A stretch of 44,219 nt of DNA, taken from the sequence record NC_049813.1; one strand, written 5' to 3'. How positions within the stretch are numbered: the first letter of the stretch is position 1; the number at the start of each line of letters is the position of its first letter. Positions 2,752 through 44,219 of the stretch are shown here, one piece after another. Source of the DNA: Escherichia phage vB_EcoS-12210I. A program made the position numbers and the translations under genes. Below the pieces are notes generated by a model. It had not been told where the DNA came from and did no database searches. It saw nothing but the letters and a program-made list of their open reading frames with translations.

Positions 2752-3081
2752 ATGAGAATGACAAGCACAAGAAAAAAGGTAATTGATTGCATACTACACT
2801 GCACTGAAGGATGCGATAGGTACAGCCCTACCGCGGATGATGTATCTAGATTGACAGGAATCCAAAGGGCTAACGCAAGGAGGACCTTGCTTGAACTTGA
2901 ATCTTATGGGGTTGTTGAAAGGGTTGAAGTTGCCTCTTACTACTCAGTCTCAAGGCGTATTGACATAAAAAGAAAATGTACAGGATGGAATGTTACAGGC
3001 AAAAAACCAGAGCCAATAGAGAGATTGAAGCTGTCTCAGGATGATGCTGATAAATTGATTAATAAAATTTTTGGCGGTTAA
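2752..3081 (+). CDS. Putative winged-helix DNA-binding regulator, 109 aa
   Basis: GGAGGA RBS; HTH-like segment SPTADDVSRLTGIQRANARRTLLELESYGVV. Confidence 0.5.
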   Translation: MRMTSTRKKVIDCILHCTEGCDRYSPTADDVSRLTGIQRANARRTLLELESYGVVERVEVASYYSVSRRIDIKRKCTGWNVTGKKPEPIERLKLSQDDADKLINKIFGG

Positions 3082-3730
3082 AATGAATATCAAGCCATTT
3101 AAAGATACCAACGTTGCCATGATGAGCACCAAAGAGATCGCGGGGTTAACTGGTAAAGAACATAATAAGGTAATTCGTGATGCCAAGGAAATGATCAATG
3201 ATTTGATACATTATAACAACTCCTCATACTTAAGGAGTGAGGATTATCAAGTACTTACAGATAATTTAGGCTATACATCAGAGATTTTACTTAACAAGGA
3301 ACTTACAGAAACGCTAATAACTGGCTACAGCGTCATTCTTCGTCACAGAGTTATCCGTCGACTTCATGAGCTTGAGGCGTTAGTTAAAAAACAAGCAGAA
3401 GTAATCAGCCAGATGGTAAGCATTAATGAACTTAAAGAGGTTCGAATGATGCTTGGTGTGGCTAATGCGCAGAATGCACACCTGAGCCAGCGCATTGTTG
3501 CAGAGCAAAGAATAAATGAGATCTTACTCATGGATAAGAGTACCGATGAAAAACTAGACATGCTGGCTTGTGAGGCTCGCCAGTGTTGGGCTAGTCGTTC
3601 TGATGAGATGGAGGAAAGATTTAAGTATGAAGCCCAATGCTTCGCCCTTAAAGAAAAGAATGATGCGCTGACTGGATTGATTGAGAATAATCTCGGAATT
3701 GACATTAAGCTGCTGCTGGAAAAGAAATAG
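3071..3730 (+). CDS. Rha-family phage regulatory protein (putative)
   Basis: N-terminal MSTKEIAGLTGKEHNKVIRDAKEM resembles the Rha/pRha motif; coiled-coil-like C-terminus. Confidence 0.5.
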   Translation: MAVKMNIKPFKDTNVAMMSTKEIAGLTGKEHNKVIRDAKEMINDLIHYNNSSYLRSEDYQVLTDNLGYTSEILLNKELTETLITGYSVILRHRVIRRLHELEALVKKQAEVISQMVSINELKEVRMMLGVANAQNAHLSQRIVAEQRINEILLMDKSTDEKLDMLACEARQCWASRSDEMEERFKYEAQCFALKEKNDALTGLIENNLGIDIKLLLEKK

Positions 3731-3786
3731 CACTAATTGCTAAACACTGATCGCAAGGATGCGATACTATTACTCCATCGAAACGA
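3725..3786 (+). promoter_or_regulatory. Promoter-like module copy c: element 3725-3744, TACTAT 3765-3770, start region CATCGAAACGA 3776-3786
   Basis: Full module geometry; overlaps the stop of the Rha-like gene. Confidence 0.6.
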
Positions 3787-7900: not shown

Positions 7901-8410
7901 CTGGTAAGCTCCACCATTAACAGAAAGGTCAATTGCATACTCGCAGGTTGTCCCGTTCAGGTCACCGTTACTCTCTTGCTTAACCAGTCTGGGCCAATAT
8001 AGCTTTACACGAATCGCTGATAGCTGATTATTGTTAACCGCAATGATGTGCGGGGTATCGTTTTTGATTTCCCTTGATACCTGAATTTCTGAGTTGGCAC
8101 CATCAAGGCCAGCGATATAGTCCTGATACTGCGTGCCAGCACGGAACTCAGCGCGAACACCTTCATAGTTGTAACTACCATCCTGATTTTGTACCGGAAC
8201 GTCAGCAAGGTATAAATCCTTCATTGAGAAGTTTGAATCCACCTCTCCGTCAGCAACCGCAAGCAACACCTTAACCTTGTTTAATGAAATAAGGTTGTCT
8301 TCCTGCTCAACTGGTTGATGCTGCTTCTGGCTACCACCTTTAGCACCATAAATCTTAATATCTTCAGCCATATCACAAAGCCTCATGTTTGTTTTGATCA
8401 TTTGTGCCAT
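5000..8410 (-). CDS. Central tail fibre / host specificity protein (lambda J-like), 1136 aa
   Basis: Size and position after I/K/L/M-like genes. Confidence 0.75.
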   Translation of the reverse strand: MAQMIKTNMRLCDMAEDIKIYGAKGGSQKQHQPVEQEDNLISLNKVKVLLAVADGEVDSNFSMKDLYLADVPVQNQDGSYNYEGVRAEFRAGTQYQDYIAGLDGANSEIQVSREIKNDTPHIIAVNNNQLSAIRVKLYWPRLVKQESNGDLNGTTCEYAIDLSVNGGAYQEYTRGVANGKTTTGYDRSIRVNLPAEFDSALVRIRKITPDSTSSTLVNGMQITTYQEVIDAKFRYPLTALVYVEFGSDLFPNGIPTISIKKRWKLIQVPTNYDPETRTYSGTWNGLFKMAWSNNPAWVLYDLVTNRRYGLDQRELGVEIDKWGLYEAAQFCDQMVPDGKGGLEPRYLCDMVVQNKAEAYTLIRDICSIFRGLTFYDGEKIGVVVDKPRNPSYIFTNDNVVNGLFSRTFASDKSLYTTANVQFDDVENNYQQDVEPVFELEATRRFGFNPVDLTAIGCTRRSEANRRGRWLLKTNLRSETISFTTGLEGMIPMIGEVIAVNDAAWSSNYQLNLSGRIESVQGLQVFTPFKVDAAPGDRILLNKPDGSPEARTIASVSEDGMTINLNTAFSFVAQPDTVFAIDKDNLALQQYVVTGIQKADSDGSDSFQYTITAVEYDPNKYDEIDYGVNIVDRPTSIVEPDRLSPPENLTVSSYSKVVQGLSVETMVIGWDKAPYAKTYNVQWRKENGNWINVPRTASAEVDIEGIYAGIYDVRVRSVSDTENVSAWSDIVTVSLTGKIGRPSAPTVITASTDEVFGIRVKWGFPEGSGDTAYTELQQVPDNGDGTYNPDNASLLTLLPYPAYEYWHTPIQPGKVIWYRARLIDRIGNTSDWSNFARGMSTDDANIINDYIKVDIEGSEGFKYLEQNAIQKNQDIQNQAESILQNALANDTDVRRMTKENGKRKAEYVQAVNLIADETQARVEALTQLKAQIDDEVVASITEVQTALATETEARTTADTALSARLGENEAALNQKLDAFSNATSTGVQYGISLGLKYNGQTYSSGMSMELVGTGGNVRSQFIFDANRFAISNGIGSGSGQWQLPFVVENGNVIIQSAVIGDGSITNAKIGDFIQSSNYVAGSTGWRIDKSGNAEIRGKLYANSGEFAFNGINNTVQINGNGITVNLPGGGRVVVGTF

Positions 8411-8422
8411 TCTACACTAAAT

Positions 8423-8443
8423 AAAAAACCCGCACTAGGCGGG
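8423..8443 (-). terminator. Intercistronic hairpin with U-run (I-J junction)
   Basis: CCCGC-ACTAG-GCGGG followed by T6 on the minus strand. Confidence 0.5.
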
Positions 8444-18592: not shown

Positions 18593-18664
18593 TCTTTATT
18601 GTTCCTTTTCAGTTATGTGTTTACGGATTCATTATACACGAGTTTTTAGCCCACGCAATGACAT

Positions 18665-18688
18665 AAAAAAAACCTCCCGAAGGAGGCT
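18665..18688 (-). terminator. Hairpin with U-run
   Basis: CCTCC-CGAA-GGAGG followed by T8. Confidence 0.6.
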
Positions 18689-18704
18689 TTATATATCTTA
18701 ATTA

Positions 18705-24429: not shown

Positions 24430-24452
24430 AAATCCTCCTTTGTTGAGGTCAG

Positions 24453-24461
24453 ATTATACCA
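24453..24461 (-). promoter_or_regulatory. Extended -10 element TGGTATAAT upstream of terS (candidate late promoter)
   Basis: Perfect TGnTATAAT about 24 nt upstream of the terS ATG. Confidence 0.4.
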
Positions 24462-24472
24462 TATTGGAGACG

Positions 24473-24495
24473 AAAAAAAGCCCTCAAGCGAGGGC
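24473..24495 (-). terminator. Rho-independent terminator separating the early block from terS
   Basis: GCCCTC-AAGC-GAGGGC followed by T7. Confidence 0.7.
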
Positions 24496-24540
24496 TAAAA
24501 ACAACGAGAGAAACGAAACTTTACAAGGGTATAACACTTT

Positions 24541-26810: not shown

Positions 26811-26839
26811 TTTCTATCCTCTCGCTTTGTGTGAACCAA

Positions 26840-26885
26840 CTATAACAAAACCCGCCGTAGCTGGTTAGGCAAAAAGTGCTATTTA
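26840..26885 (-). promoter_or_regulatory. Promoter-like module copy g: element 26866-26885, TATAGT 26840-26845
   Basis: Element and hexamer with 20-bp spacer. Confidence 0.5.
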
Positions 26886-29131: not shown

Positions 29132-29408
29132 GTTGATACCTCGTTTCGTTTACTTCGTTTCAGTGATTGCCATCTTGCCACTTGTTTACGTGTCGGTCAA
29201 CGTATTTTTATGTCTATTCCATCGCGGATACGTTTTTTCGGCCTCCAAGGCAGCGTCAGCACTGGTTGTAAACGTGCCGTATCCCCTGTGTACCGTTTTT
29301 GGGAGTGCTTTCCTATATATGCGCCTTTTTATTCCTACAATGTCATCCCATTCTGACAAGTGTCAGAATATCTGCGCGGAACATATCAATTATCCAATCA
29401 ATTATCGG

Positions 29409-29483
29409 TATACACAGTATACATATATATAATAATAATAATAATAATAAAGTAAAAGGTTGATATATATAGATATTATATTG
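29409..29483. repeat. AT-rich repeat copy B with (ATA)6 tract; partner at 2361-2427
   Basis: Same flanks as copy A, longer trinucleotide run. Confidence 0.8.
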
Positions 29484-29679
29484 TATATCGTGCGTATATC
29501 TCGCGTAAAAAACGTAGGTTAGTGGTAACTAACTTTTGTGACGACACTTGGTATACGATGGTTACTCGTATATCTCAAGAATGGCTCACCAAGAATGAAA
29601 ATCAACTTGTATGGTAGTCAATCCATCTTTCATTCACTCACCCACCACTTCATTTCACTTTTCGCAACAATCAAAAACA

Positions 29680-30426: not shown

Positions 30427-30469
30427 AACGAAATCGCAAGGATGCGGTATTATCTTTACATCGAAACGG
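30408..30469 (+). promoter_or_regulatory. Promoter-like module copy k: element 30408-30427, TATTAT 30448-30453, start region CATCGAAACGG 30459-30469
   Basis: Full module geometry. Confidence 0.6.
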
Positions 30470-30994: not shown

Positions 30995-31068
30995 TAAGCA
31001 CAAATTGACAATGAATTATAAGCGGTCGTTGATATAATGGCCGCTCAGAAACAATACGGAGACAAGTA

Positions 31069-32991: not shown

Positions 32992-33051
32992 ATAGCACTT
33001 TTTGTTAAAAGCCCCTTGTGGGCTTTTGTTATTATTAATTCATCGAAACGA
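32990..33051 (+). promoter_or_regulatory. Promoter-like module copy l: element 32990-33009, TATTAT 33030-33035, start region CATCGAAACGA 33041-33051
   Basis: Full module geometry; a hairpin (33009-33025) sits inside the spacer. Confidence 0.55.
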
Positions 33052-34790: not shown

Positions 34791-35919
34791 AACTAAACAT
34801 TTCGGGACGGCAAGTGAATCGACCAATCTCTCCGAATTTAGGGCTGTAGATGATTACCGACGCCTGGCGATAAGAGCGATAACCACCGTTGGCACTGTAC
34901 GCATCCTTGCAACCAAGCTGACCATGAGACTCATCGATACCTAAGTTACCCTCTGTAATCGTTTGATGGTGGTAATGGCCACTATGAGTGTAAACATACT
35001 CAGACTCACCAAAAGCCTTACGATGGTCACGAGCCAGTGTTGATAGTCTGGTATCAGGCTTTTTGAGTTCATGTCCATGACAGTAACCAAGCAGCGTCTT
35101 TCCAAACTGCGTTACGTGAAGCGCTGCAGGAGATGCGTCAACATTAACTCGAGGCTCATCCATATAGAACGCCGCCATTGCAGCACGAAGCCAAATCATA
35201 CCTGAGAGGTCGTGGTTTCCAGGGATAATCTGAACCTCAATCTCAGCGTGCTTATCAAGCATCCGGCTAATTGCTCTGCGGGTTGCTCGTACTGCTACGT
35301 AAACCAATTTGTGATAACGGCTATCTTGGTCAAGAATATGACGACTCGTTGGAGTTACCGCTTCCATTCCGTCAGAGTGAAGGAAGTCACCACCAATCAG
35401 CAATACAGCCTTCTTTGAGTTAGGAGCCTTTGCAACCGCGTAATCAAAGTAGCTATTAAGAATGCGCTCTGCAATTTCAGTGCTGTAGTTCTCACCACAC
35501 TCGGCATGGTGAGCCATTGCGCCAATGTGTAAGTCGAATACGGGGTACAGGCTTAAGGTATCCTCAAATGATGACTTACTGAGCGGCTTTGGTTTCTCGC
35601 GTGGCAACTCATCAGTTAGGGCCTGAATTGCCTGAAGCATCATTTCTTCTTGCTTCTCTTTGTCGATGTCAGATTTAACCCACTGTTGCTTAATCTCACC
35701 GTCGGCACCAATTAAGCTAGACACACCTTTGACAGCGTAACCTTGAGGAATTAGGTTGCTAACATCACGGCCATGCCCCTCACCTTGCTTAGCTAATTTA
35801 CTACGACGCAATTCAACGTTGCGAATGTTCATTCCGTACTTCTCTGCGATTGCCTTGTTTGTCATGCCATTAGCCAGCTCTTCGCGCAGTTCTTCGTTGG
35901 TAATTTTTGCAGTTGCCAT
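34789..35919 (-). CDS. Calcineurin-like metallophosphoesterase with N-terminal HTH domain
   Basis: Motifs DLH, GDFLHSDG, GNHD, GHxH; N-terminal HTH-like MTNKAIAEKYGMNIRNV. Confidence 0.65.
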   Translation of the reverse strand: MATAKITNEELREELANGMTNKAIAEKYGMNIRNVELRRSKLAKQGEGHGRDVSNLIPQGYAVKGVSSLIGADGEIKQQWVKSDIDKEKQEEMMLQAIQALTDELPREKPKPLSKSSFEDTLSLYPVFDLHIGAMAHHAECGENYSTEIAERILNSYFDYAVAKAPNSKKAVLLIGGDFLHSDGMEAVTPTSRHILDQDSRYHKLVYVAVRATRRAISRMLDKHAEIEVQIIPGNHDLSGMIWLRAAMAAFYMDEPRVNVDASPAALHVTQFGKTLLGYCHGHELKKPDTRLSTLARDHRKAFGESEYVYTHSGHYHHQTITEGNLGIDESHGQLGCKDAYSANGGYRSYRQASVIIYSPKFGEIGRFTCRPEMFS

Positions 35920-35930
35920 TTATAAGTTCC

Positions 35931-36255: not shown

Positions 36256-36504
36256 TTAATCCTTATGCTTCGTTATCTTAAACTTTAATCCCTCAGATTT
36301 AAGGAACTCGTTAACATCAATTCTAACACCTGGCTTAACTCTTGCGTATTTTCTTGGGCGTTCATCCATGTAAGAAAATTTACCATTAAAGACAACGCTA
36401 ATATCTTTTATGTCAAAGAAGCGGGATATCTGCTTAATGTCATCCTGCAACCCCGCCTCCCCACAATGCGCCCATACTGCGGCGCGTCCGGTTTCAACTA
36501 TCAC
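36256..36504 (-). CDS. Hypothetical protein, 82 aa (GTG start)
   Basis: ORF with GTGA coupling. Confidence 0.4.
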   Translation of the reverse strand: MIVETGRAAVWAHCGEAGLQDDIKQISRFFDIKDISVVFNGKFSYMDERPRKYARVKPGVRIDVNEFLKSEGLKFKITKHKD

Positions 36505-36626
36505 AAGCCGTATGCCATTTTTATGTACTCTTTAGCACACATCCAGCAATATTCTGAGCCGGTTTTAACTGCGTCTTTTGCATAAGTCTGTGAAATTTCG
36601 AACATCTCTTTGTCTACAATTTTCAT
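36501..36626 (-). CDS. Hypothetical small protein, 41 aa
   Basis: TAATG overlap with upstream gene. Confidence 0.3.
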   Translation of the reverse strand: MKIVDKEMFEISQTYAKDAVKTGSEYCWMCAKEYIKMAYGL

Positions 36627-37041: not shown

Positions 37042-37077
37042 TTTGTTTCTCTCTCTTCGTTTCGTTTCGATGAGGTG

Positions 37078-37537: not shown

Positions 37538-39528
37538 AACAATTCTCCAAAATTCTTAAAAGCTATTATATCCTTTCCTTTGCCATTCTTGCGGTGTGTC
37601 ACCTGGACTGGCGCACGAAACTTATCTGCGTTAGTCATAATCATTCTTGCATTCTTCAGTCTGCCAATTCGTGCTGCTTCAGCGCGATTTTCAATGTGAG
37701 CAAGGCAAAAGTTTTTCCAAAGCACACTACAAACCCTATGGTCAGATTCTGGATTGAAGAACTCCCAAGCGTTAAATCTTTCTCCGTTGTGGGCCATGAT
37801 ATTGTACTTAACTACAATGCCCGTTTGATTCTTGCTTAAACCAACTTGAAAATCATAAACCCGCAAATAGTCTCCGCGACGATACATCTTTCCAGTCAGG
37901 TTAGCGTTTGGGTCTTTAAGCATTTCTCCGCATTCACGACAAACTTTTGCTGCTATGTCATTTTTAGTTCCACAACCTTTCTTGATTACCGCCTTTGTTT
38001 GTTGGTCGGTAATATCATCACATGTTGTGAACTGGAAAAAGTGATCGCATCTAACGCCATTAATCTTATTGCTACAGCGTCTAGCAAATGGCGAGTTCTC
38101 ATATCCACATTGCGGACACTGGCGAACCTCATCACCACCTTTTCTTGAGGATTTAAACTTCTCAGCCTGAATCTCCTCAATTATTGGGTCAAAGTAAAGC
38201 TCTGCCATGTCATCAAGCGCTCCGGCAAAGTCTAATACCAAGTGGTCCTCCTTCTTGAACCCAGCATCTATGTGCGCCTTTTTTAGTTTTCGCATGCCAC
38301 GACCAAGAAGCTGAATCATTAAGGTTAGACTGCCAATCTTGCGTAGTATGACGCTAGTATCCCACAGCGGTTGGTTTACGCCCGTGGTTAGACATCCAAT
38401 CTGAAAGATAATCTTGTACTTTCCAGTCTGGCAATCTGCAAGAATCTCTCTGCGCCTCCTCTCTCCGGTAGAATCGGTGATAATGGCGTAAGGGTATCCA
38501 TCCGGCAATGCCGCAGCAGCCTCATCACAATGGAGTTTTCCAGCGCAGGTGACCAATGCGGCGTTGCGAGTCTCCAGTATTTTGACGACAAACTGCATTA
38601 TCTTTTGTGTCATGGTTTGGTTGTCGTGAATCTTTGCGGCCATTGCATCCATTTCTTTTCTGCTAAAGTCTTTCACGCCATCACTACCGTCTGGAACAAA
38701 CTCGCTAAGGTCATAACCCAAATCGCCAACCTCGCCATAAACAGTAGGAACCACGAATCCCAAATCAACAAGGTAATTTGTTGGAACCTGAATCACAGTT
38801 TTTCGCCAGAACCCACGGATATTTGGATTGCTAACGACGATATGATCATTGTTTCGATAAGGGCTACCAGTAAGGCCGAATATACGAAGCTCCCGCCCGT
38901 ATTTTTCACGGCAGCGACGCTTCATCTCAGTGATTATTAGCGTGTACTGCGCACGACCAGTACCAAGCAATCCAGTATTAACGCCATCCTTAAAAACCAT
39001 CTCGCCTTTCTTTGTGCTCATTTGCTCAAATGTTTCTTCATTCTCTTCGGCTTCCACGATATCCATGTGATCGACCATGTGACACTCATCGATTGCGATA
39101 ACAGCCGGAACATAGTCACCAAGCCCCTTAAATAAGCCGTTAGCTGCCGTGCCCTCACTGGCAACTATGGTTGGGTAATAAACTGATTTAACGTTAAGCC
39201 CGGCGCAATAGACGCTATTACGGATGCCAAGATTGCGAAGCTCTTCTGAGTTCTGGCTGATTATCTCTGACTGGCGAGAAAGCACCATATAAGGAAGACC
39301 AAGCTGCTCCATACGCTTACCAATCATAGCGAGAATGATTGTCTTACCAGCCGATACGGAAAGGTCTGCGATAAATGGCGCCTCATACTTGCCAATAGCC
39401 TTCCCAATTGCGTCAAATGTAACGCACTGGAATTCGTAAGGGGTTATCTCGCCAAACTGGTAATCTTTCTGAATCTGCTTGATTCTTTCTTTATCGAAGT
39501 TTGCAACCAGCTTCTCGATAGGCAACAT
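37534..39528 (-). CDS. DExH-box ATP-dependent helicase with C-terminal zinc-ribbon motifs
   Basis: Walker A SAGKT, DECH box, several CxxC pairs near the C-terminus. Confidence 0.7.
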   Translation of the reverse strand: MLPIEKLVANFDKERIKQIQKDYQFGEITPYEFQCVTFDAIGKAIGKYEAPFIADLSVSAGKTIILAMIGKRMEQLGLPYMVLSRQSEIISQNSEELRNLGIRNSVYCAGLNVKSVYYPTIVASEGTAANGLFKGLGDYVPAVIAIDECHMVDHMDIVEAEENEETFEQMSTKKGEMVFKDGVNTGLLGTGRAQYTLIITEMKRRCREKYGRELRIFGLTGSPYRNNDHIVVSNPNIRGFWRKTVIQVPTNYLVDLGFVVPTVYGEVGDLGYDLSEFVPDGSDGVKDFSRKEMDAMAAKIHDNQTMTQKIMQFVVKILETRNAALVTCAGKLHCDEAAAALPDGYPYAIITDSTGERRRREILADCQTGKYKIIFQIGCLTTGVNQPLWDTSVILRKIGSLTLMIQLLGRGMRKLKKAHIDAGFKKEDHLVLDFAGALDDMAELYFDPIIEEIQAEKFKSSRKGGDEVRQCPQCGYENSPFARRCSNKINGVRCDHFFQFTTCDDITDQQTKAVIKKGCGTKNDIAAKVCRECGEMLKDPNANLTGKMYRRGDYLRVYDFQVGLSKNQTGIVVKYNIMAHNGERFNAWEFFNPESDHRVCSVLWKNFCLAHIENRAEAARIGRLKNARMIMTNADKFRAPVQVTHRKNGKGKDIIAFKNFGELL

Positions 39529-39629
39529 ATCTAAATTCCTATAAAAATTGTCTTGTAGCGTTTAATTGAGTACAATAATACCATCAAATCAGTATGACTT
39601 TTAACAAAAAATGCTATTGAGGTAATGAA

Positions 39630-40103
39630 ATGAATGCAGTAGACAAGCGAACCATTAACGGCAATAACGGAACCATCCGCACTGAAGATAAAAAGCAGCG
39701 AAAACGACCTTCAGGTTACTACGTTTTAAAAGATGAAGTAAGAGCGGGTTTACGTGCGCGGCTGGAAATTGTTCTTGATTTCTTCGGCACAAAGGCAAAT
39801 ATGGCAAAGCAATTAAAGGTAACACCACAGGCTGTAGAAGAATGGTTTAAGCGCGGCATGATGTCGGCGCGTGGTGCTCAGCTTTCGCACAACTACTATA
39901 AGCGAAATGGAGAAGGTTTTCGCGCAACATTCTGCCGACCAGACTTGCAATTCGACGGCAACGGCAAGCCGCTGACACTTCGGTGCAAAAAACGCCACAT
40001 GCTTCGCGTGGTTACCGAGGCTGAATTAGCCACCAAGCCAGAGTGTCGGTCCTGGCGCAAAATTAAGGCCGCTAACGAAGCAGCACGGAAAGCTAAAGAG
40101 TAA
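39630..40103 (+). CDS. Putative HTH DNA-binding protein, 157 aa
   Basis: GAGG RBS; HTH-like KANMAKQLKVTPQAVEEWFKRG. Confidence 0.45.
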   Translation: MNAVDKRTINGNNGTIRTEDKKQRKRPSGYYVLKDEVRAGLRARLEIVLDFFGTKANMAKQLKVTPQAVEEWFKRGMMSARGAQLSHNYYKRNGEGFRATFCRPDLQFDGNGKPLTLRCKKRHMLRVVTEAELATKPECRSWRKIKAANEAARKAKE

Positions 40104-40106
40104 GGG

Positions 40107-40152
40107 AAATAGCACTAATTGATAAACAGTGGCGCTATGCATTGTGTATAGT
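40107..40152 (+). promoter_or_regulatory. Promoter-like module copy p: element 40107-40126, TATAGT 40147-40152
   Basis: Element and hexamer with 20-bp spacer. Confidence 0.55.
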
Positions 40153-40178
40153 GCCTTTATTGTTTATGGAGGGTGTAT

Positions 40179-41105
40179 ATGAATTATCATGACAAAAATG
40201 AAGTGATAGCTAAAATGAAAGGGATGTGGGGTGAGTTCTACTTGTCTCATTTGGGATGGACCAGAGAAAATCTTAGCAAGAAGCATGGGCCATGCCCGAA
40301 TTGTGGAGGTCGTGATAGGTTTAGATTCACTGATGAGTTAGGTCAAGAAAAGGGAAATGGAGCAGCAATATGCAACCAGTGCGGCAATGATTCTGGTGTT
40401 GGTTGGGTCATGAAGTGTTCCGGAATGAGTTATAGTGAAACAATAGATACGCTTGGTGATTGGCTAAATCTCGTTCCAGTAGAGGTTATATCAAAAGCAA
40501 ACAAAAGAGCATCTCGTACATCACCATACAAAATGGGCGCTCAGATTGACCATGAAAGATGCTTAGAGATAATGGAAAGGACGGAGAGGGTAGAATCAAC
40601 TCCACTCAGCATATATGAGGGTATCTATAGCGAGTTTGGCTTTGATGTTGGCAGAACAAAATCAGGCGAAATAATACACGCAATACCGTGTTTTATGGCT
40701 TATAGTGACGGCATATCGGAAGAAATGTGCAATGTAATGTTTATAAATGAAGATGGAGATGTTAGTTATGCTGCAAAAGATTACACTCGCCAATCTGTCG
40801 CTGTTATTGGTGCCTTTAAAAGTGATGAGTACGCTTATCTTGTGGATAATTGGATTGATGGTATTCGTGTTCATCTTGCTACTGGTAACCGCTGTGTACT
40901 TGTTTGCCACTCTAGCTACAATATGGAGATGGTTGCTTATGCGCTTAGGAACCACAAGCTGAGAGTGGCTTGTACTCGCCACGATTTTGATTTACTCGCC
41001 GTTGCTGATGATCGCAATCTTGATGTTGTAATGCCAAATGATGATAATTTTTTCAAGTCAGGAATAAGAAAGCGCATATACAAGGCAAGCGAATTACTAG
41101 ACTAA
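40179..41105 (+). CDS. DNA primase (zinc-ribbon type)
   Basis: GGAGGG RBS; CPNCGG...C..C zinc-binding motif near the N-terminus. Confidence 0.65.
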   Translation: MNYHDKNEVIAKMKGMWGEFYLSHLGWTRENLSKKHGPCPNCGGRDRFRFTDELGQEKGNGAAICNQCGNDSGVGWVMKCSGMSYSETIDTLGDWLNLVPVEVISKANKRASRTSPYKMGAQIDHERCLEIMERTERVESTPLSIYEGIYSEFGFDVGRTKSGEIIHAIPCFMAYSDGISEEMCNVMFINEDGDVSYAAKDYTRQSVAVIGAFKSDEYAYLVDNWIDGIRVHLATGNRCVLVCHSSYNMEMVAYALRNHKLRVACTRHDFDLLAVADDRNLDVVMPNDDNFFKSGIRKRIYKASELLD

Positions 41106-41127
41106 CCTCCTTCGGGAGGTTTTTTTA
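41105..41127 (+). terminator. Rho-independent terminator after primase
   Basis: ACCTCC-TTCG-GGAGGT followed by T7. Confidence 0.75.
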
Positions 41128-41138
41128 TGCCTGAAAGA

Positions 41139-41172
41139 TGATACAATCCAACTTATCAATTAGTGCTATTTT
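41139..41172 (+). promoter_or_regulatory. Candidate tail-fibre promoter (TGATACAAT extended -10 at 41139-41147) overlapped at +1 by an inverted copy of the 20-bp element (41153-41172)
   Basis: Element copy q is in the opposite orientation to all other plus-gene copies and lies downstream of the -10. Confidence 0.4.
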
Positions 41173-41192
41173 ACAAATGGAGACTTTACACA

Positions 41193-43562
41193 ATGGCAAT
41201 TTATGACTTAGGAACCGCCTCGCTGGCCGCAAATGGCAAGGTAACTGGCGCGGGGACAACATGGAAAGCACCTCTTACACTGATCAGGGTTGGTGCCACT
41301 ATCATTTTTAAAACTAACCCACTAAAAATTTACACCATCTCTGAAATCATCAGTGATACGCAGATTAATGTTTACAATCCTAATTCTGAAACAGTTCCGG
41401 CTGGTACGGGTTATGCGATTCTTGCGCACGATGGTATTACGGTTCAGGGTTTGGCTCAGGATGTTGCGGAGACTTTGCGATACTATCAGTCAAAGGAGAC
41501 TTCTATTGAAAGTTTACTGCAATTTATCGGGCAAGATACTTTCGATTGGCCTCGCTTCGAGCAATTAGCCAACCAGTCAGTAACAGGCGCCTCCGAGGCT
41601 TTAGCTAGCCAGATTGCCGCAGCAGAGAGCGCCGCCACTGCTGTTAGTGCAAGAGACATAACTACAGCCGCAAGAGATGCAACTATCGCAGCCATTGATA
41701 GCGCTGGAGACGCGGGGGCTATGGTTGCTCTCGCAGGAATGGGAATTAGCGGAACAACGCCACTTCTAACATCGCTTGACTGGGATACGTTTAATTTCAA
41801 TTCTGGCTCTCGTTACCTGTGCCGGGTATCATCGATGACCAACACCCCGGAGGTGATAACATCAACCTTCGCAGCTGCGACAGTCTGCATAATTGAAGTT
41901 AAATCAAACCGAGGGATCAATGGTCAGAAAAACTTCCAGATTTCAGCAAACACGTCATCTGATAACATATACAGAGTCATTGACCTAAACCAGACTGTAG
42001 CGGGCGGTGTGCGCTCCTATTCATCCAGAGAGGCTCTGTATGTTGCTTCTGGCTCTAATACTGGTGGCGCAAGTGCTAATAGAGTAAGGGGTTTGCTTGA
42101 TGTTTATTCAAAAAGTGAGACTTTTCAAAAATCATTAAACCTCTCTGACGTTTCAAATAAAGCTACAGCAAGAACCAATCTTGATGTTTACTCAAAGTCA
42201 GAAATTTACTCAAAGTCAGAAATTAACTCAAGAGAGGGTTATTCAACTAATCTTGCGGAAGTTATTTCAGGGCTATCAAGCGGTATGGCAACTATATCTA
42301 AGTCCTTGGTTATCTCCGATGGGCTTTCGGTGCCTTCATTTGCTGAAATATCAGGCGATAAAAACTTTAGGGCTGGTTTTATTGGAGTTGATTATAGAAA
42401 GAACAAGACGATAAGGAAAAGTTCAAACTCTACAGTTACATTATCAAATCAGGATTCCAACGCAGGCAGTCAGGTTGTTGACGCAGTTCTTTACCAGGAC
42501 CCAGCGTGGCCTTTTGCTTCTGTTTACCCGCAGAAGACAACAATAAAAAATCTAACAATTGAGGGTAACTCGGCTGCAAGCAAGAATCAGGCAGCGATTT
42601 ACATCCTACAAGCAGGCGTTGCTGAAATTGATGGCGTAGATACTATTAACTGTAAGTATTCAGTGTGGTCAAAGGATATTTTTCAGACGCGCATTAACCG
42701 CGTTTTCTCTAACGACGGAAAGATAAGGCTGGATAACGGAACATCGGTTGTTATTTCTAACTGCGGGCTTGCATCATCAGACACTGAGAGAACTGGAGCC
42801 TTTGACCTTACCGGAATGAAGTACTCAACAATGATTAGCTGCACTTCAGACCACACGACAAATACCGCTTATTCACTCAATGCGTGTGAGGGGTTGAGCA
42901 TGATTTCATGTGGGTGTGAAGCATCAGGAACAACTACAGCAAATTCAGGAACGGCGATTGCATTTAGGGATAACAACAAGAATATCTTTGTTAGTGGATT
43001 CTCATGCTTACCTGTACCAGATCAAGGGCCTGCATTGGTTAGCTTCGGATCTAACAATGATATCAACCTTACTAACTTTGAAGTCATACCAGGAATAAAC
43101 TACTCATCTGACTTCTATATTGCTGGTCCTGGAAACAACATCGTTATTAATGGCGGTCGTTTTGGGAGATCTGGCAGCTTAATGCCTGTTGTGACAGCTA
43201 GTGGAAGCGCAATTGGATCAAGGATTACATACAACGCATCAAACGGCGTAACGTATGATTACGTAGTTTCCGCGGCTGGAGTTGTAAATCCAGTACCAAG
43301 AAAAAGCGCAATAACTTCTATTCTCGTAAACGCTGAAGGTAATGTAATTAGAGGCTCGGGGGCTTCATGTGAGAGAGAGGCTGACGGAACGTACCTTGTA
43401 ACTCTTGATTATTCAAATGGAATTACGGGCGCATCAGTTGATTTGTATGGTTACATTGGTTTATCTTCATTTGTGTTTGTTGATAACAACAAGATTAGGG
43501 TTAGCGTAACAAATACAGGAGGAGTATCTGTAAACCAAGCATTTAGTGTTATAGTTTTCTAA
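41193..43562 (+). CDS. Tail fibre protein, about 789 aa
   Basis: ATG 41193 (MAIYDLGTA); internal tandem YSKSE repeats (fibre-repeat-like); terminator downstream. Confidence 0.7.
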   Translation: MAIYDLGTASLAANGKVTGAGTTWKAPLTLIRVGATIIFKTNPLKIYTISEIISDTQINVYNPNSETVPAGTGYAILAHDGITVQGLAQDVAETLRYYQSKETSIESLLQFIGQDTFDWPRFEQLANQSVTGASEALASQIAAAESAATAVSARDITTAARDATIAAIDSAGDAGAMVALAGMGISGTTPLLTSLDWDTFNFNSGSRYLCRVSSMTNTPEVITSTFAAATVCIIEVKSNRGINGQKNFQISANTSSDNIYRVIDLNQTVAGGVRSYSSREALYVASGSNTGGASANRVRGLLDVYSKSETFQKSLNLSDVSNKATARTNLDVYSKSEIYSKSEINSREGYSTNLAEVISGLSSGMATISKSLVISDGLSVPSFAEISGDKNFRAGFIGVDYRKNKTIRKSSNSTVTLSNQDSNAGSQVVDAVLYQDPAWPFASVYPQKTTIKNLTIEGNSAASKNQAAIYILQAGVAEIDGVDTINCKYSVWSKDIFQTRINRVFSNDGKIRLDNGTSVVISNCGLASSDTERTGAFDLTGMKYSTMISCTSDHTTNTAYSLNACEGLSMISCGCEASGTTTANSGTAIAFRDNNKNIFVSGFSCLPVPDQGPALVSFGSNNDINLTNFEVIPGINYSSDFYIAGPGNNIVINGGRFGRSGSLMPVVTASGSAIGSRITYNASNGVTYDYVVSAAGVVNPVPRKSAITSILVNAEGNVIRGSGASCEREADGTYLVTLDYSNGITGASVDLYGYIGLSSFVFVDNNKIRVSVTNTGGVSVNQAFSVIVF

Positions 43563-43595: not shown

Positions 43596-44021
43596 TCAGA
43601 ATGGGATGTCGTCCTCGAAGTTCTGTTGCTGCTGAGGTTGCTGTTGCCGCTGAGGTTGCTGTTGCCGCTGAGGTTGATGTTGCTGTTGCTGCGGTGCTGA
43701 ATCACCACGCTGACTAAACTCAAGTCGCGGATTGTTCATGTTAATGGTTACGTAAGTCTTACCATCTTTATCCCTAACATCTACAGCCAAACTTTCAGCG
43801 CTAACACTAACAACTTTACCTTCTTGAAATGCATCATTGTACCAATCTAACATAGATTCTTTAGCGAAGAAGACGGCGCGATAGTTACTATACTGATTCT
43901 GCCCATCTTTATCCTTATATCGCTCACTCAAATCAACTGCGAACATTTTCCAGCTACCATTAGCATTCTGACCTTCCTTAGTGAATGGGGCGCGTCGAAT
44001 CTGACCAGTAATTACGTGCAT
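43596..44021 (-). CDS. ssb: Single-stranded DNA-binding protein
   Basis: C-terminal acidic tail ending DDIPF preceded by a Gln/Pro-rich linker. Confidence 0.85.
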   Translation of the reverse strand: MHVITGQIRRAPFTKEGQNANGSWKMFAVDLSERYKDKDGQNQYSNYRAVFFAKESMLDWYNDAFQEGKVVSVSAESLAVDVRDKDGKTYVTINMNNPRLEFSQRGDSAPQQQQHQPQRQQQPQRQQQPQQQQNFEDDIPF

Positions 44022-44062: not shown

Positions 44063-44219
44063 TTAGAATGTGTCGATTTGTTTTGATTCTACTTTAATCT
44101 TTTCTTCAGGACTACTTTTTTCTGCAACTTTCTTTGGTGCTGCTGGGTTGAAGCCAGTTGCTGCATTTGCTTCAATCTCTGCCTTTCGCTCTATGATGTG
44201 GGGTTCGAAAACCTTCCAT
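44063..44219 (-). CDS. 3-prime part of the ERF-like gene (same gene as 1-621; 44093-44219 duplicates 1-127)
   Basis: Frame continuity across the junction; TAA at 44063-44065. Confidence 0.5.
   Translation of the reverse strand, partial: WKVFEPHIIERKAEIEANAATGFNPAAPKKVAEKSSPEEKIKVESKQIDTF
44093..44219. repeat. Terminal overlap copy (identical to 1-127)
   Basis: Direct comparison. Confidence 0.9.

Follow-up and report, generated by a model that had tools for sequence, protein, structure and literature searches.

What does a transcriptional element do when it lies, inverted, on the start of a promoter instead of upstream of it? This question is raised by the tail-fibre locus of Escherichia phage vB_EcoS-12210I, whose sequence record (NC_049813.1; 44,219 bases, analysed in full and referred to as the window) is the complete genome of a T1-like phage of the genus Veterinaerplatzvirus (Braunvirinae, Drexlerviridae). 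The genome carries 18 copies of a 20-base-pair (bp) element, and one of them, at 41153-41172, is turned against its gene and overlaps the predicted start of the side (lateral) tail-fibre gene. The arrangement is conserved in relatives, and we put at about even the chance that this copy is an operator, at which the same protein that would activate other phage promoters from sites near -42 represses the tail-fibre start by overlap.

The element has the form AAATAGCAC-nnn-TTGCTAAA, with a perfectly palindromic core of 15 bp, TAGCA-N5-TGCTA. With at most one mismatch, the core is matched 20 times in the genome against 1.9 matches expected, and none of 100 shuffled sequences reached 20. Seventeen of the 18 copies are co-oriented with their own gene and share one geometry, in which the core is followed by a spacer of 21-23 nucleotides (nt) and a -10 hexamer of the form TAnnnT (e.g., TATAGT, TATTAT or TATAAT), with no TTG at the -35 position in any of the 17. 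If transcription starts 7 nt after the hexamer, which is what we mean by the predicted start throughout, the core of these standard copies extends from about -49 to -35, with its centre near -42, where class II activators such as CRP and FNR (-41.5) and lambda cI (at PRM) are placed. The spacer is unconserved and in several cases contains the terminator hairpin of the upstream gene. The same element geometry was found in phages T1, TLS and Rtp and in Vibrio phage Vc1. Two other readings were rejected: of the element as a sigma-70 -35 box, since TTGCTA stands 22 nt from the -10, and of the CCCCATCG motif as sigma-32-type, for which no matching -35 is present.

The sequence family itself has been described in TLS, as 21-nt direct repeats DR1-DR18 (aaATAGCACnnnTTGnTAAAA) that point along transcription about 76 nt before start codons; T1, Rtp and Rogue1 are mentioned as well, and the function of the repeats is left open, with a stoperator, an enhancer site or an UP element suggested (PMC11447400). 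The same paper makes no mention of a fixed spacing of 21-23 nt between repeat and -10 and lists no copy at the side tail-fibre promoter (PMC11447400). The tail-fibre copy of the window differs from the TLS repeats in that it is inverted, lies downstream of a -10 and has no counterpart at that place in TLS.

To score orientation, a weight matrix was built from the 17 promoter-associated copies, with leave-one-out scoring and a threshold of 8 bits for the genome scan. In the forward orientation the standard copies scored +15 to +35 bits, and when reversed they scored -7 to -24 bits, so that the polarity of the element is real despite its palindromic core. Above 8 bits, the scan returned exactly the 17 standard copies and the tail-fibre copy, compared with 0-1 matches in shuffled genomes. 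The tail-fibre copy scored +18.6 bits on the minus strand and -16.6 bits on the plus strand and, being the sole extra match above the threshold, is a true copy inverted relative to its gene, as an earlier note on this DNA had proposed. It reads TTATCAATTAGTGCTATTTT, the reverse complement of AAAATAGCACTAATTGATAA; read on the minus strand as AAAATAGCACTAATTGATAAG, it fits the aaATAGCACnnnTTGnTAAAA repeat. The note had further stated that its orientation is opposite to that of every other copy serving a plus-strand gene, and this is the case: the other seven (2544, 3728, 29765, 30411, 32993, 33151 and 40110) are all plus-oriented. One minus-oriented copy, at 39602, does stand just upstream of a plus-strand regulator gene, but it is the ordinary element of the divergently transcribed helicase gene. 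The tail-fibre copy departs from the consensus once, with TTATCA for TTAGCA. Because the same G-to-T variant (TGATA; TTGATAA) is present in promoters of standard geometry, namely that of the primase gene of the window (40110) and those of Sd1, ACG-M12, Vc1 (46434) and Rtp (43835), it is a tolerated form.

The tail-fibre gene itself is predicted to be a transcription unit of its own, located behind the primase terminator and served by a host-type extended -10 promoter that would need no activator. The extended -10 starts 12 nt past the terminator, and in the place of a -35 box there is a run of TTTTTT. The predicted start falls at about 41154, which is the first base of the 15-bp core; the copy begins 5 nt, and its core 6 nt, past the end of the hexamer, so that the core would occupy +1 to +15, inside the footprint of RNA polymerase. 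The placement of the element downstream of the extended -10 and on the predicted start, also claimed in the note, is therefore confirmed, with TGATACAAT at 41139-41147 and the core at 41154. At 21-23 nt from this copy there is no -10 in either direction, the sequence being GGCATA leftward (22 nt) and the start codon rightward, and it is the only strong copy that lacks a -10 at the standard spacing, both in the window and in Rtp, where it is the single non-standard one among 20 copies. Translation is assigned to the ATG at 41193 rather than to the GTG at 41163 of the mechanical list of open reading frames (ORFs), and the product is annotated as a tail fibre in relatives too. For another phage in this genus, it has been questioned whether the tail-spike gene is ever transcribed, given the terminator in front of it (PMC7718038); an extended -10 promoter that is conserved answers this doubt at the level of sequence.

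Coordinates of the promoter, operator-like and coding features discussed in the text (positions in the window; bp, nt and aa denote base pairs, nucleotides and amino acids)
Feature	Position	Strand	Basis
Intrinsic terminator of the primase gene, AACCTCCTTCGGGAGGTT then T7	41104-41126	+	Terminator scan; kept in relatives
Extended -10 of the tail-fibre gene, TGATACAAT	41139-41147 (TG 41139-41140, TACAAT 41142-41147)	+	Sequence, conservation
Inverted element copy, proposed operator	41153-41172 (core 41154-41168)	-	Weight matrix and conservation
Shine-Dalgarno sequence GGAGAC (41179-41184) and ATG (41193-41195)	41179-41195	+	PHROG match from residue 1
Side (lateral) tail-fibre gene, 789 aa	41193-43562	+	phrog_24092 tail fiber protein, E = 2.8e-149
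Standard promoter of the primase gene	Element AAATAGCACTAATTGATAA 40107-40125, 22 nt, TATAGT 40147-40152	+	Element and -10 spacing
Cro-like helix-turn-helix regulator, 157 aa (T1 gp23 family), candidate element binder	39630-40103	+	phrog_2856, E = 5e-84
Regulator/helicase divergent control region	39548-39618	both	Promoters and shared element
terS host-type promoter, TGGTATAAT, directly after a terminator	24440-24500	-	Conserved in Rtp
Major capsid host-type promoter, TTGCGT-16-TATAAT, directly after a terminator	18600-18700	-	Conserved in Rtp
J-like fibre host-type promoter, TAGAAT, directly after a terminator	8395-8440	-	Conserved in Rtp

Conservation of the locus was assessed in related phages, which are not phylogenetically independent of one another. 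Within 39500-42500, the part compared, the window is 100% identical to vB_EcoS isolates grown on E. coli DSM 12242. Phages BEK6, G8, Sd1, EC3a, ACG-M12 and Rtp have TG[A/C]TACAAT, 5 nt and then TTAGCAATT[C/A]GTGCTA, and T1, a member of another subfamily in which the fibre N-terminus and the flanks differ, has TGATAAAAT, 6 nt and then TTAGCAATTCGTGCTATTT. A scan of viral contigs (IMG/VR) with the fibre N-terminus yielded 45 loci, in 23 of which the inverted core stands 6-7 nt past an extended -10; this gap is 6 nt wide in the Braunvirinae-like loci and 7 nt in those that are T1-like. When 24 distinct upstream regions of these two kinds were aligned, TG-n-TA-n-AAT was invariant and TTAGCAATT-n-GTGCTA invariant or nearly so; the n positions, the flanks and the 5 nt between the motifs (CTGAG, CAGTG, CATTG and others) varied. 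Judged by its pattern, this alignment is a phylogenetic footprint of two probably functional motifs held at a fixed distance, and the invariance of the -10 and the element around variable bases points to a functional site at a position in which a protein, once bound, would obstruct RNA polymerase. Lineages that lack the tail-fibre copy retain a post-terminator promoter, which in several of them is an extended -10 (TGCTATTAT, TGATACAAT or TGGTAGAAT) and in TLS-like phages a -35/-10 promoter, TTGCAT-17-CATAAT. Thus, the promoter is the older feature, and a large subset of the phages has the operator-like copy in addition.

How the copy would work can be put in terms of position. The quasi-palindromic element would suit a dimeric DNA-binding protein; at the 17 promoters without a -35 box, such a protein bound at about -42 would act as a class II activator, and the same protein at +1 to +15 of the tail-fibre promoter would block or throttle it, repression being expected because the site is inside the polymerase footprint. 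The probable effect would be to limit how strongly the tail-fibre gene is expressed, or to shape the timing of its expression relative to the terS, capsid and J promoters, which would be unregulated. The sequence accommodates a gene that is off early and on late as well as one that is expressed for a short time and then turned down. A strong constitutive promoter held in check for this one gene would fit equally well, the protein being expected in few copies per virion, and so would relief by titration as genomes with 18 sites each replicate.

The note had presented the copy as an operator on a late gene that forms, together with activating sites at early genes, a simple early/late switch. The operator idea is reasonable and gains from the conservation of the copy in Rtp, T1 and 23 of the 45 loci, as well as from the non-standard copies of T1, which are also located at structural promoters. 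The tie to early genes did not hold: standard copies also precede the lysis cassette (34774) and the tail chaperone and tape-measure genes (14944), and another lies on the packaging side (25595), where a terminator and the terS promoter stand between the copy and terS. The element is not specific for early genes, and because the terS, capsid and J promoters carry no copy, the site would exert gene-specific control here rather than act as a general early/late switch.

Several points weigh against the operator reading. The tail-fibre copy of the window is weaker than those of its relatives (18.6 versus 25-34 bits), and it is dispensable in some lineages, as TLS-like phages have no copy at the tail-fibre promoter. 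Its conserved orientation may just reflect common descent. A sequence of "off early, on late" would need an extra, hypothetical step, such as titration or inactivation, because a binder that activates late-acting genes would also be present late. The literature searched contained no experimental start site, footprint, expression timing or time-course RNA data for T1-like phages. Finally, the assignment of the binder, considered next, is complicated by the predicted recognition helix of the candidate regulator, which differs in Vc1 (VCCVRLTNAY versus TPQAVEEWF) although the element is unchanged, so that covariation gives no support for the predicted helix reading the element; there are also other DNA-binding candidates in the window, namely a Rha-like protein (3071-3730) and a weak winged-helix match (2752-3081), and the T1 annotation names two proteins with helix-turn-helix domains beside its ATPase gene.

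The most likely binder of the element is the Cro-like regulator encoded two genes upstream of the tail-fibre gene. Its homologue is annotated as a transcriptional regulator in Rtp, T1, Sd1 and TLS. Against the Pfam family P22_Cro it scored 26.3 bits (E = 6.6e-6), under the cut-off of 30.2, and a sequence search against solved structures gave no match. The predicted model (predicted local distance difference test score, pLDDT, of 86.8) matched best the fold of all-alpha Cro proteins, Xfaso 1 Cro and N15 Cro, with target-normalised template-modelling scores of 0.65-0.74 but weak E-values of 0.04-0.4. Within the Braunvirinae the regulator is 96-98% identical, even where the adjacent primase is just 55% identical; its homologues were found solely on contigs or records of Drexlerviridae-like appearance, and regulator and element co-occur in the same loci. 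The most conserved part of the protein (residues 1-45; 39630-39765) comprises an N-terminal basic arm, DKRTINGNNGTxRxxDKKxRKRP (predicted to be disordered), and the first helix, EVxAGLxAR, not the helix-turn-helix, and two cysteines in the C-terminal part are nearly invariant.

The promoter of the regulator gene, TTGTCT-17-TACAAT (39548-39576, plus strand), is one of the few host-type -35/-10 promoters of the genome. The minus-oriented element in the regulator leader (39601-39618) is the site near -42 of the leftward helicase promoter, whose -10 (TATTAT) overlaps the regulator -10, TACAAT, on the opposite strand. T1 (about 36425-36535) and TLS (about 35825-35930) share this layout, and the leaders of Braunvirinae regulator genes also carry a copy. 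The overlap suggests that the regulator is self-limiting, in that activating the helicase promoter would shut its own.

Element copies are also laid over other host-type promoters in the family. The window and Rtp have no strong copy at the terS, capsid or J promoters. T1 has five non-standard copies, all at promoters of structural genes: a forward copy overlapping TGGTAAAAT at terS, an inverted copy within TTGACG-16-TGcTATTAT at the capsid gene, an inverted copy upstream of the tape-measure chaperone gene, a weak forward copy 12 nt past the -10 at J and the inverted copy at the side-fibre promoter. TLS retains the capsid and J copies. An element copy over a host-type structural promoter is thus a recurrent theme of the family, of which the Braunvirinae have the tail-fibre case only. 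At the J promoter of the window, a weak element-like sequence, GAATGGCACAAATGATCAAAA (5.4 bits), overlaps the -10. A leaderless J-gene transcript was considered and dropped, there being a better start with a Shine-Dalgarno sequence further downstream.

Other accounts of the inverted copy were weighed against the operator reading. It might be a non-functional leftover, perhaps a scar from an event of recombination or gene conversion in which the copy at the primase promoter, 1 kb upstream, took part. Segments 40107-40125 and 41153-41171 are exact reverse complements and thus form a perfect 19-bp inverted repeat flanking the primase gene, and the two positions at which the closest relatives differ from the tail-fibre copy of the window (G to T; spacer C to A) are both changed towards the primase copy, which suggests that the two copies of the window underwent gene conversion. 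That TLS-like phages manage without the copy would also fit a leftover. We nonetheless consider a mere scar unlikely, given that the copy has the same place and orientation in T1, Rtp, Sd1 and the 23 loci, stays invariant amid varying intergenic bases and is present in many phages with no possible donor, since most of them, including Rtp, BEK6 and G8, lack a primase-promoter copy to convert from. The copy might, alternatively, be bound without repression, with the protein holding or recruiting polymerase from downstream, or its half-site GTGCTATTTT might serve as a second extended -10 yielding a transcript with a short leader. For the latter, TGCTATTTT (TGcTATTTT, 41164-41172) fits TGnTAnnnT and is conserved in the Braunvirinae, and the tail-fibre promoter of another lineage is TGCTATTAT after TTAGCAAA, as if half of the element had turned into a -10; but in T1-like phages the sequence is TGCTATTTA, in which the essential final T is missing, and a start there would leave almost no leader ahead of the Shine-Dalgarno sequence. 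Downstream recruitment, for its part, would require activators bound at +1 to +15, for which we know of no mode of action, and we regard this whole group of possibilities as improbable. The element might also be read by a host factor, or by host RNA polymerase directly, in which case the tail-fibre copy would act constitutively as a brake or decoy, whether or not phage genes are expressed. Both half-sites do resemble the TGnTA of an extended -10, and the regulator is a candidate binder whose recognition helix varies while the element is constant; yet the same element and geometry are found in phages of Escherichia, Klebsiella and Vibrio, and a search for the exact consensus over 185,579 representative genomes returned 65 scattered single matches, none of them in Escherichia coli. 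We know of no E. coli regulator with this site, and a host reader has, in our judgement, little likelihood. The only contig with two exact consensus matches in these genomes, NZ_VSMK01000220.1 (46,669 bp), is filed under Nitratidesulfovibrio liaohensis, and its size suggests a T1-like phage genome in that assembly, probably a contaminant.

Two further readings seem more remote still. The copy could be the upstream element of a leftward promoter producing RNA antisense to the 3' end of the primase gene, as every other leftward-oriented copy drives a leftward gene and a -10-like TATCAT is present at 41144-41139 on the minus strand. TATCAT is, however, just 10 nt from the core, and at 21-23 nt the window has GGCATA, where relatives vary without the final T (GGTATA, TACCTG, TATGAG and others); moreover, no leftward gene follows, and the transcript would enter the terminator hairpin. 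With no -10 at the standard distance and no conservation of the sequence there, this promoter was rejected as unlikely. Alternatively, the palindrome could act as RNA, as a 5'-terminal hairpin affecting the stability or translation of the tail-fibre mRNA. It would sit at the extreme 5' end of the transcript, and the canonical copy, taken by itself, forms a weak hairpin whose stem has 5 bp and whose loop has 5 nt (-3.8 kcal/mol, z = -3.75), but the variant of the window gives 0 kcal/mol, whole leaders have z = -0.5 to +0.9 relative to shuffled sequences, and two independent half-site changes (TTATCA in the window, TTACCA in locus L025) are uncompensated on the other arm. The other 17 copies all stand ahead of the predicted start and hence outside the transcript of the promoter concerned. 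A search of Rfam returned nothing near threshold. On the strength of folding, the uncompensated changes and the Rfam search, a hairpin or structured leader was rejected as unlikely.

The operator reading has classical counterparts. In lambda, cI activates PRM from a site near -42 and represses PR by overlap. The resemblance to cI and OR, and to C2 and Cro of P22, would lie in a dimeric helix-turn-helix protein (here a candidate with a Cro-type fold), a palindromic site, activation or repression according to position, and the sharing of one site by divergent promoters, here those of the regulator and the helicase. Unlike lambda and P22, this phage is virulent and has about 18 sites distributed over the genome instead of two operator clusters, with no cooperative triplet of sites, and its candidate regulator, whose binding we infer, combines a long, conserved arm at the N-terminus with a C-terminal part for which there was no structural match. 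Protein p4 of phi29 activates a promoter that lacks a -35 and represses others, depending on the position of its site; it represses early promoters and activates a late one, from a site further upstream, whereas here the promoters that would be activated include those of early, replication and lysis genes and the one proposed to be repressed serves a structural gene. In T4, the MotA box, with AsiA, takes the place of the -35 at promoters whose sigma-70 -10 is good, and promoters with an extended -10 do not depend on contacts at -35. The MotA box is centred at about -30 and non-palindromic, whereas the element described here ends 22 nt before the -10, with its centre at about -42. Operators of the lac O1 type are likewise palindromes just past the -10 in the polymerase footprint, but here the sequence doubles as an upstream element.

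Additional features were recorded at the standard promoters. Starting about 5 nt past most standard -10 boxes, around the predicted start or first transcribed bases, is a motif near CATCGAAACGA (e.g., 3771-3785, 30454-30468 and, on the minus strand, 37056-37075), also present in T1, TLS and Rtp and, as CAACGAAAC, in Vc1. In several places a terminator is nested with the next promoter within about 45 nt (32993-33035, 40107-40155 and 26826-26884), for example the hairpin AAAAGCCCCTTGTGGGCTTTT at 33009-33029. The promoter of a gene for a 527-aa ATPase (30996-31038) is a hybrid, in which a degenerate element, ATAAGCACAAATTGACAAT (3.8 bits), is followed after 22 nt by a perfect extended -10, TGATATAAT. 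Elsewhere in the genome, two AT-rich copies of about 90 nt (2354-2443 and 29402-29499), each containing a (TAA)n run and then AGTAAAAGGTTGATATATATAGATATT, are located in large non-coding gaps bordering gene blocks; their second halves (2395-2443 and 29451-29499) are about 86% identical, and they may represent an origin or early promoters. An 18-bp tandem repeat, CTGTTGCCGCTGAGGTTG, is present in about 3.7 copies at 43623-43688, within a minus-strand ORF (43596-44021). The ends of the sequence carry an exact 127-bp duplication (1-127 and 44093-44219). Rather than a terminal repeat of biological origin, this seems to be an overlap from the assembly of a genome that is circular or circularly permuted.

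The repeat family is already known (PMC11447400), and it is a classical principle that one site can activate or repress according to its position. Three findings appear to be new: the repeat has a fixed geometry within its promoters, the side-fibre gene has an extended -10 that is conserved, and a likewise conserved inverted copy lies over the start site of this gene. We found no description of the operator-like copy in the literature searched; earlier mention in the genome papers on T1 (2004) or Rtp (2006) is possible.

T1-like phages often turn up as contaminants in the laboratory and are candidates for therapeutic use, and the gap addressed here is how their gene expression is ordered. A descriptive repeat becomes a simple, testable model of one protein acting at two positions, and a short DNA site might be mutated to alter the dosage of tail fibres in engineered phages. 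Extended to the family, and held by us only as a tentative and somewhat doubtful proposal, one regulator and one palindromic site might run the whole transcription programme of T1-type phages. Host polymerase would make the regulator from its consensus-like promoter; the regulator would then activate some 17-25 promoters without a -35 from sites at about -42, limit its own synthesis through the overlapping divergent promoters and repress host-type structural promoters at overlaps, the tail-fibre promoter here and in T1 also those of terS, capsid and J. If true, such a one-regulator programme would provide a mechanism for the timing of genes in T1, a classical T phage with neither a polymerase nor a sigma factor of its own.

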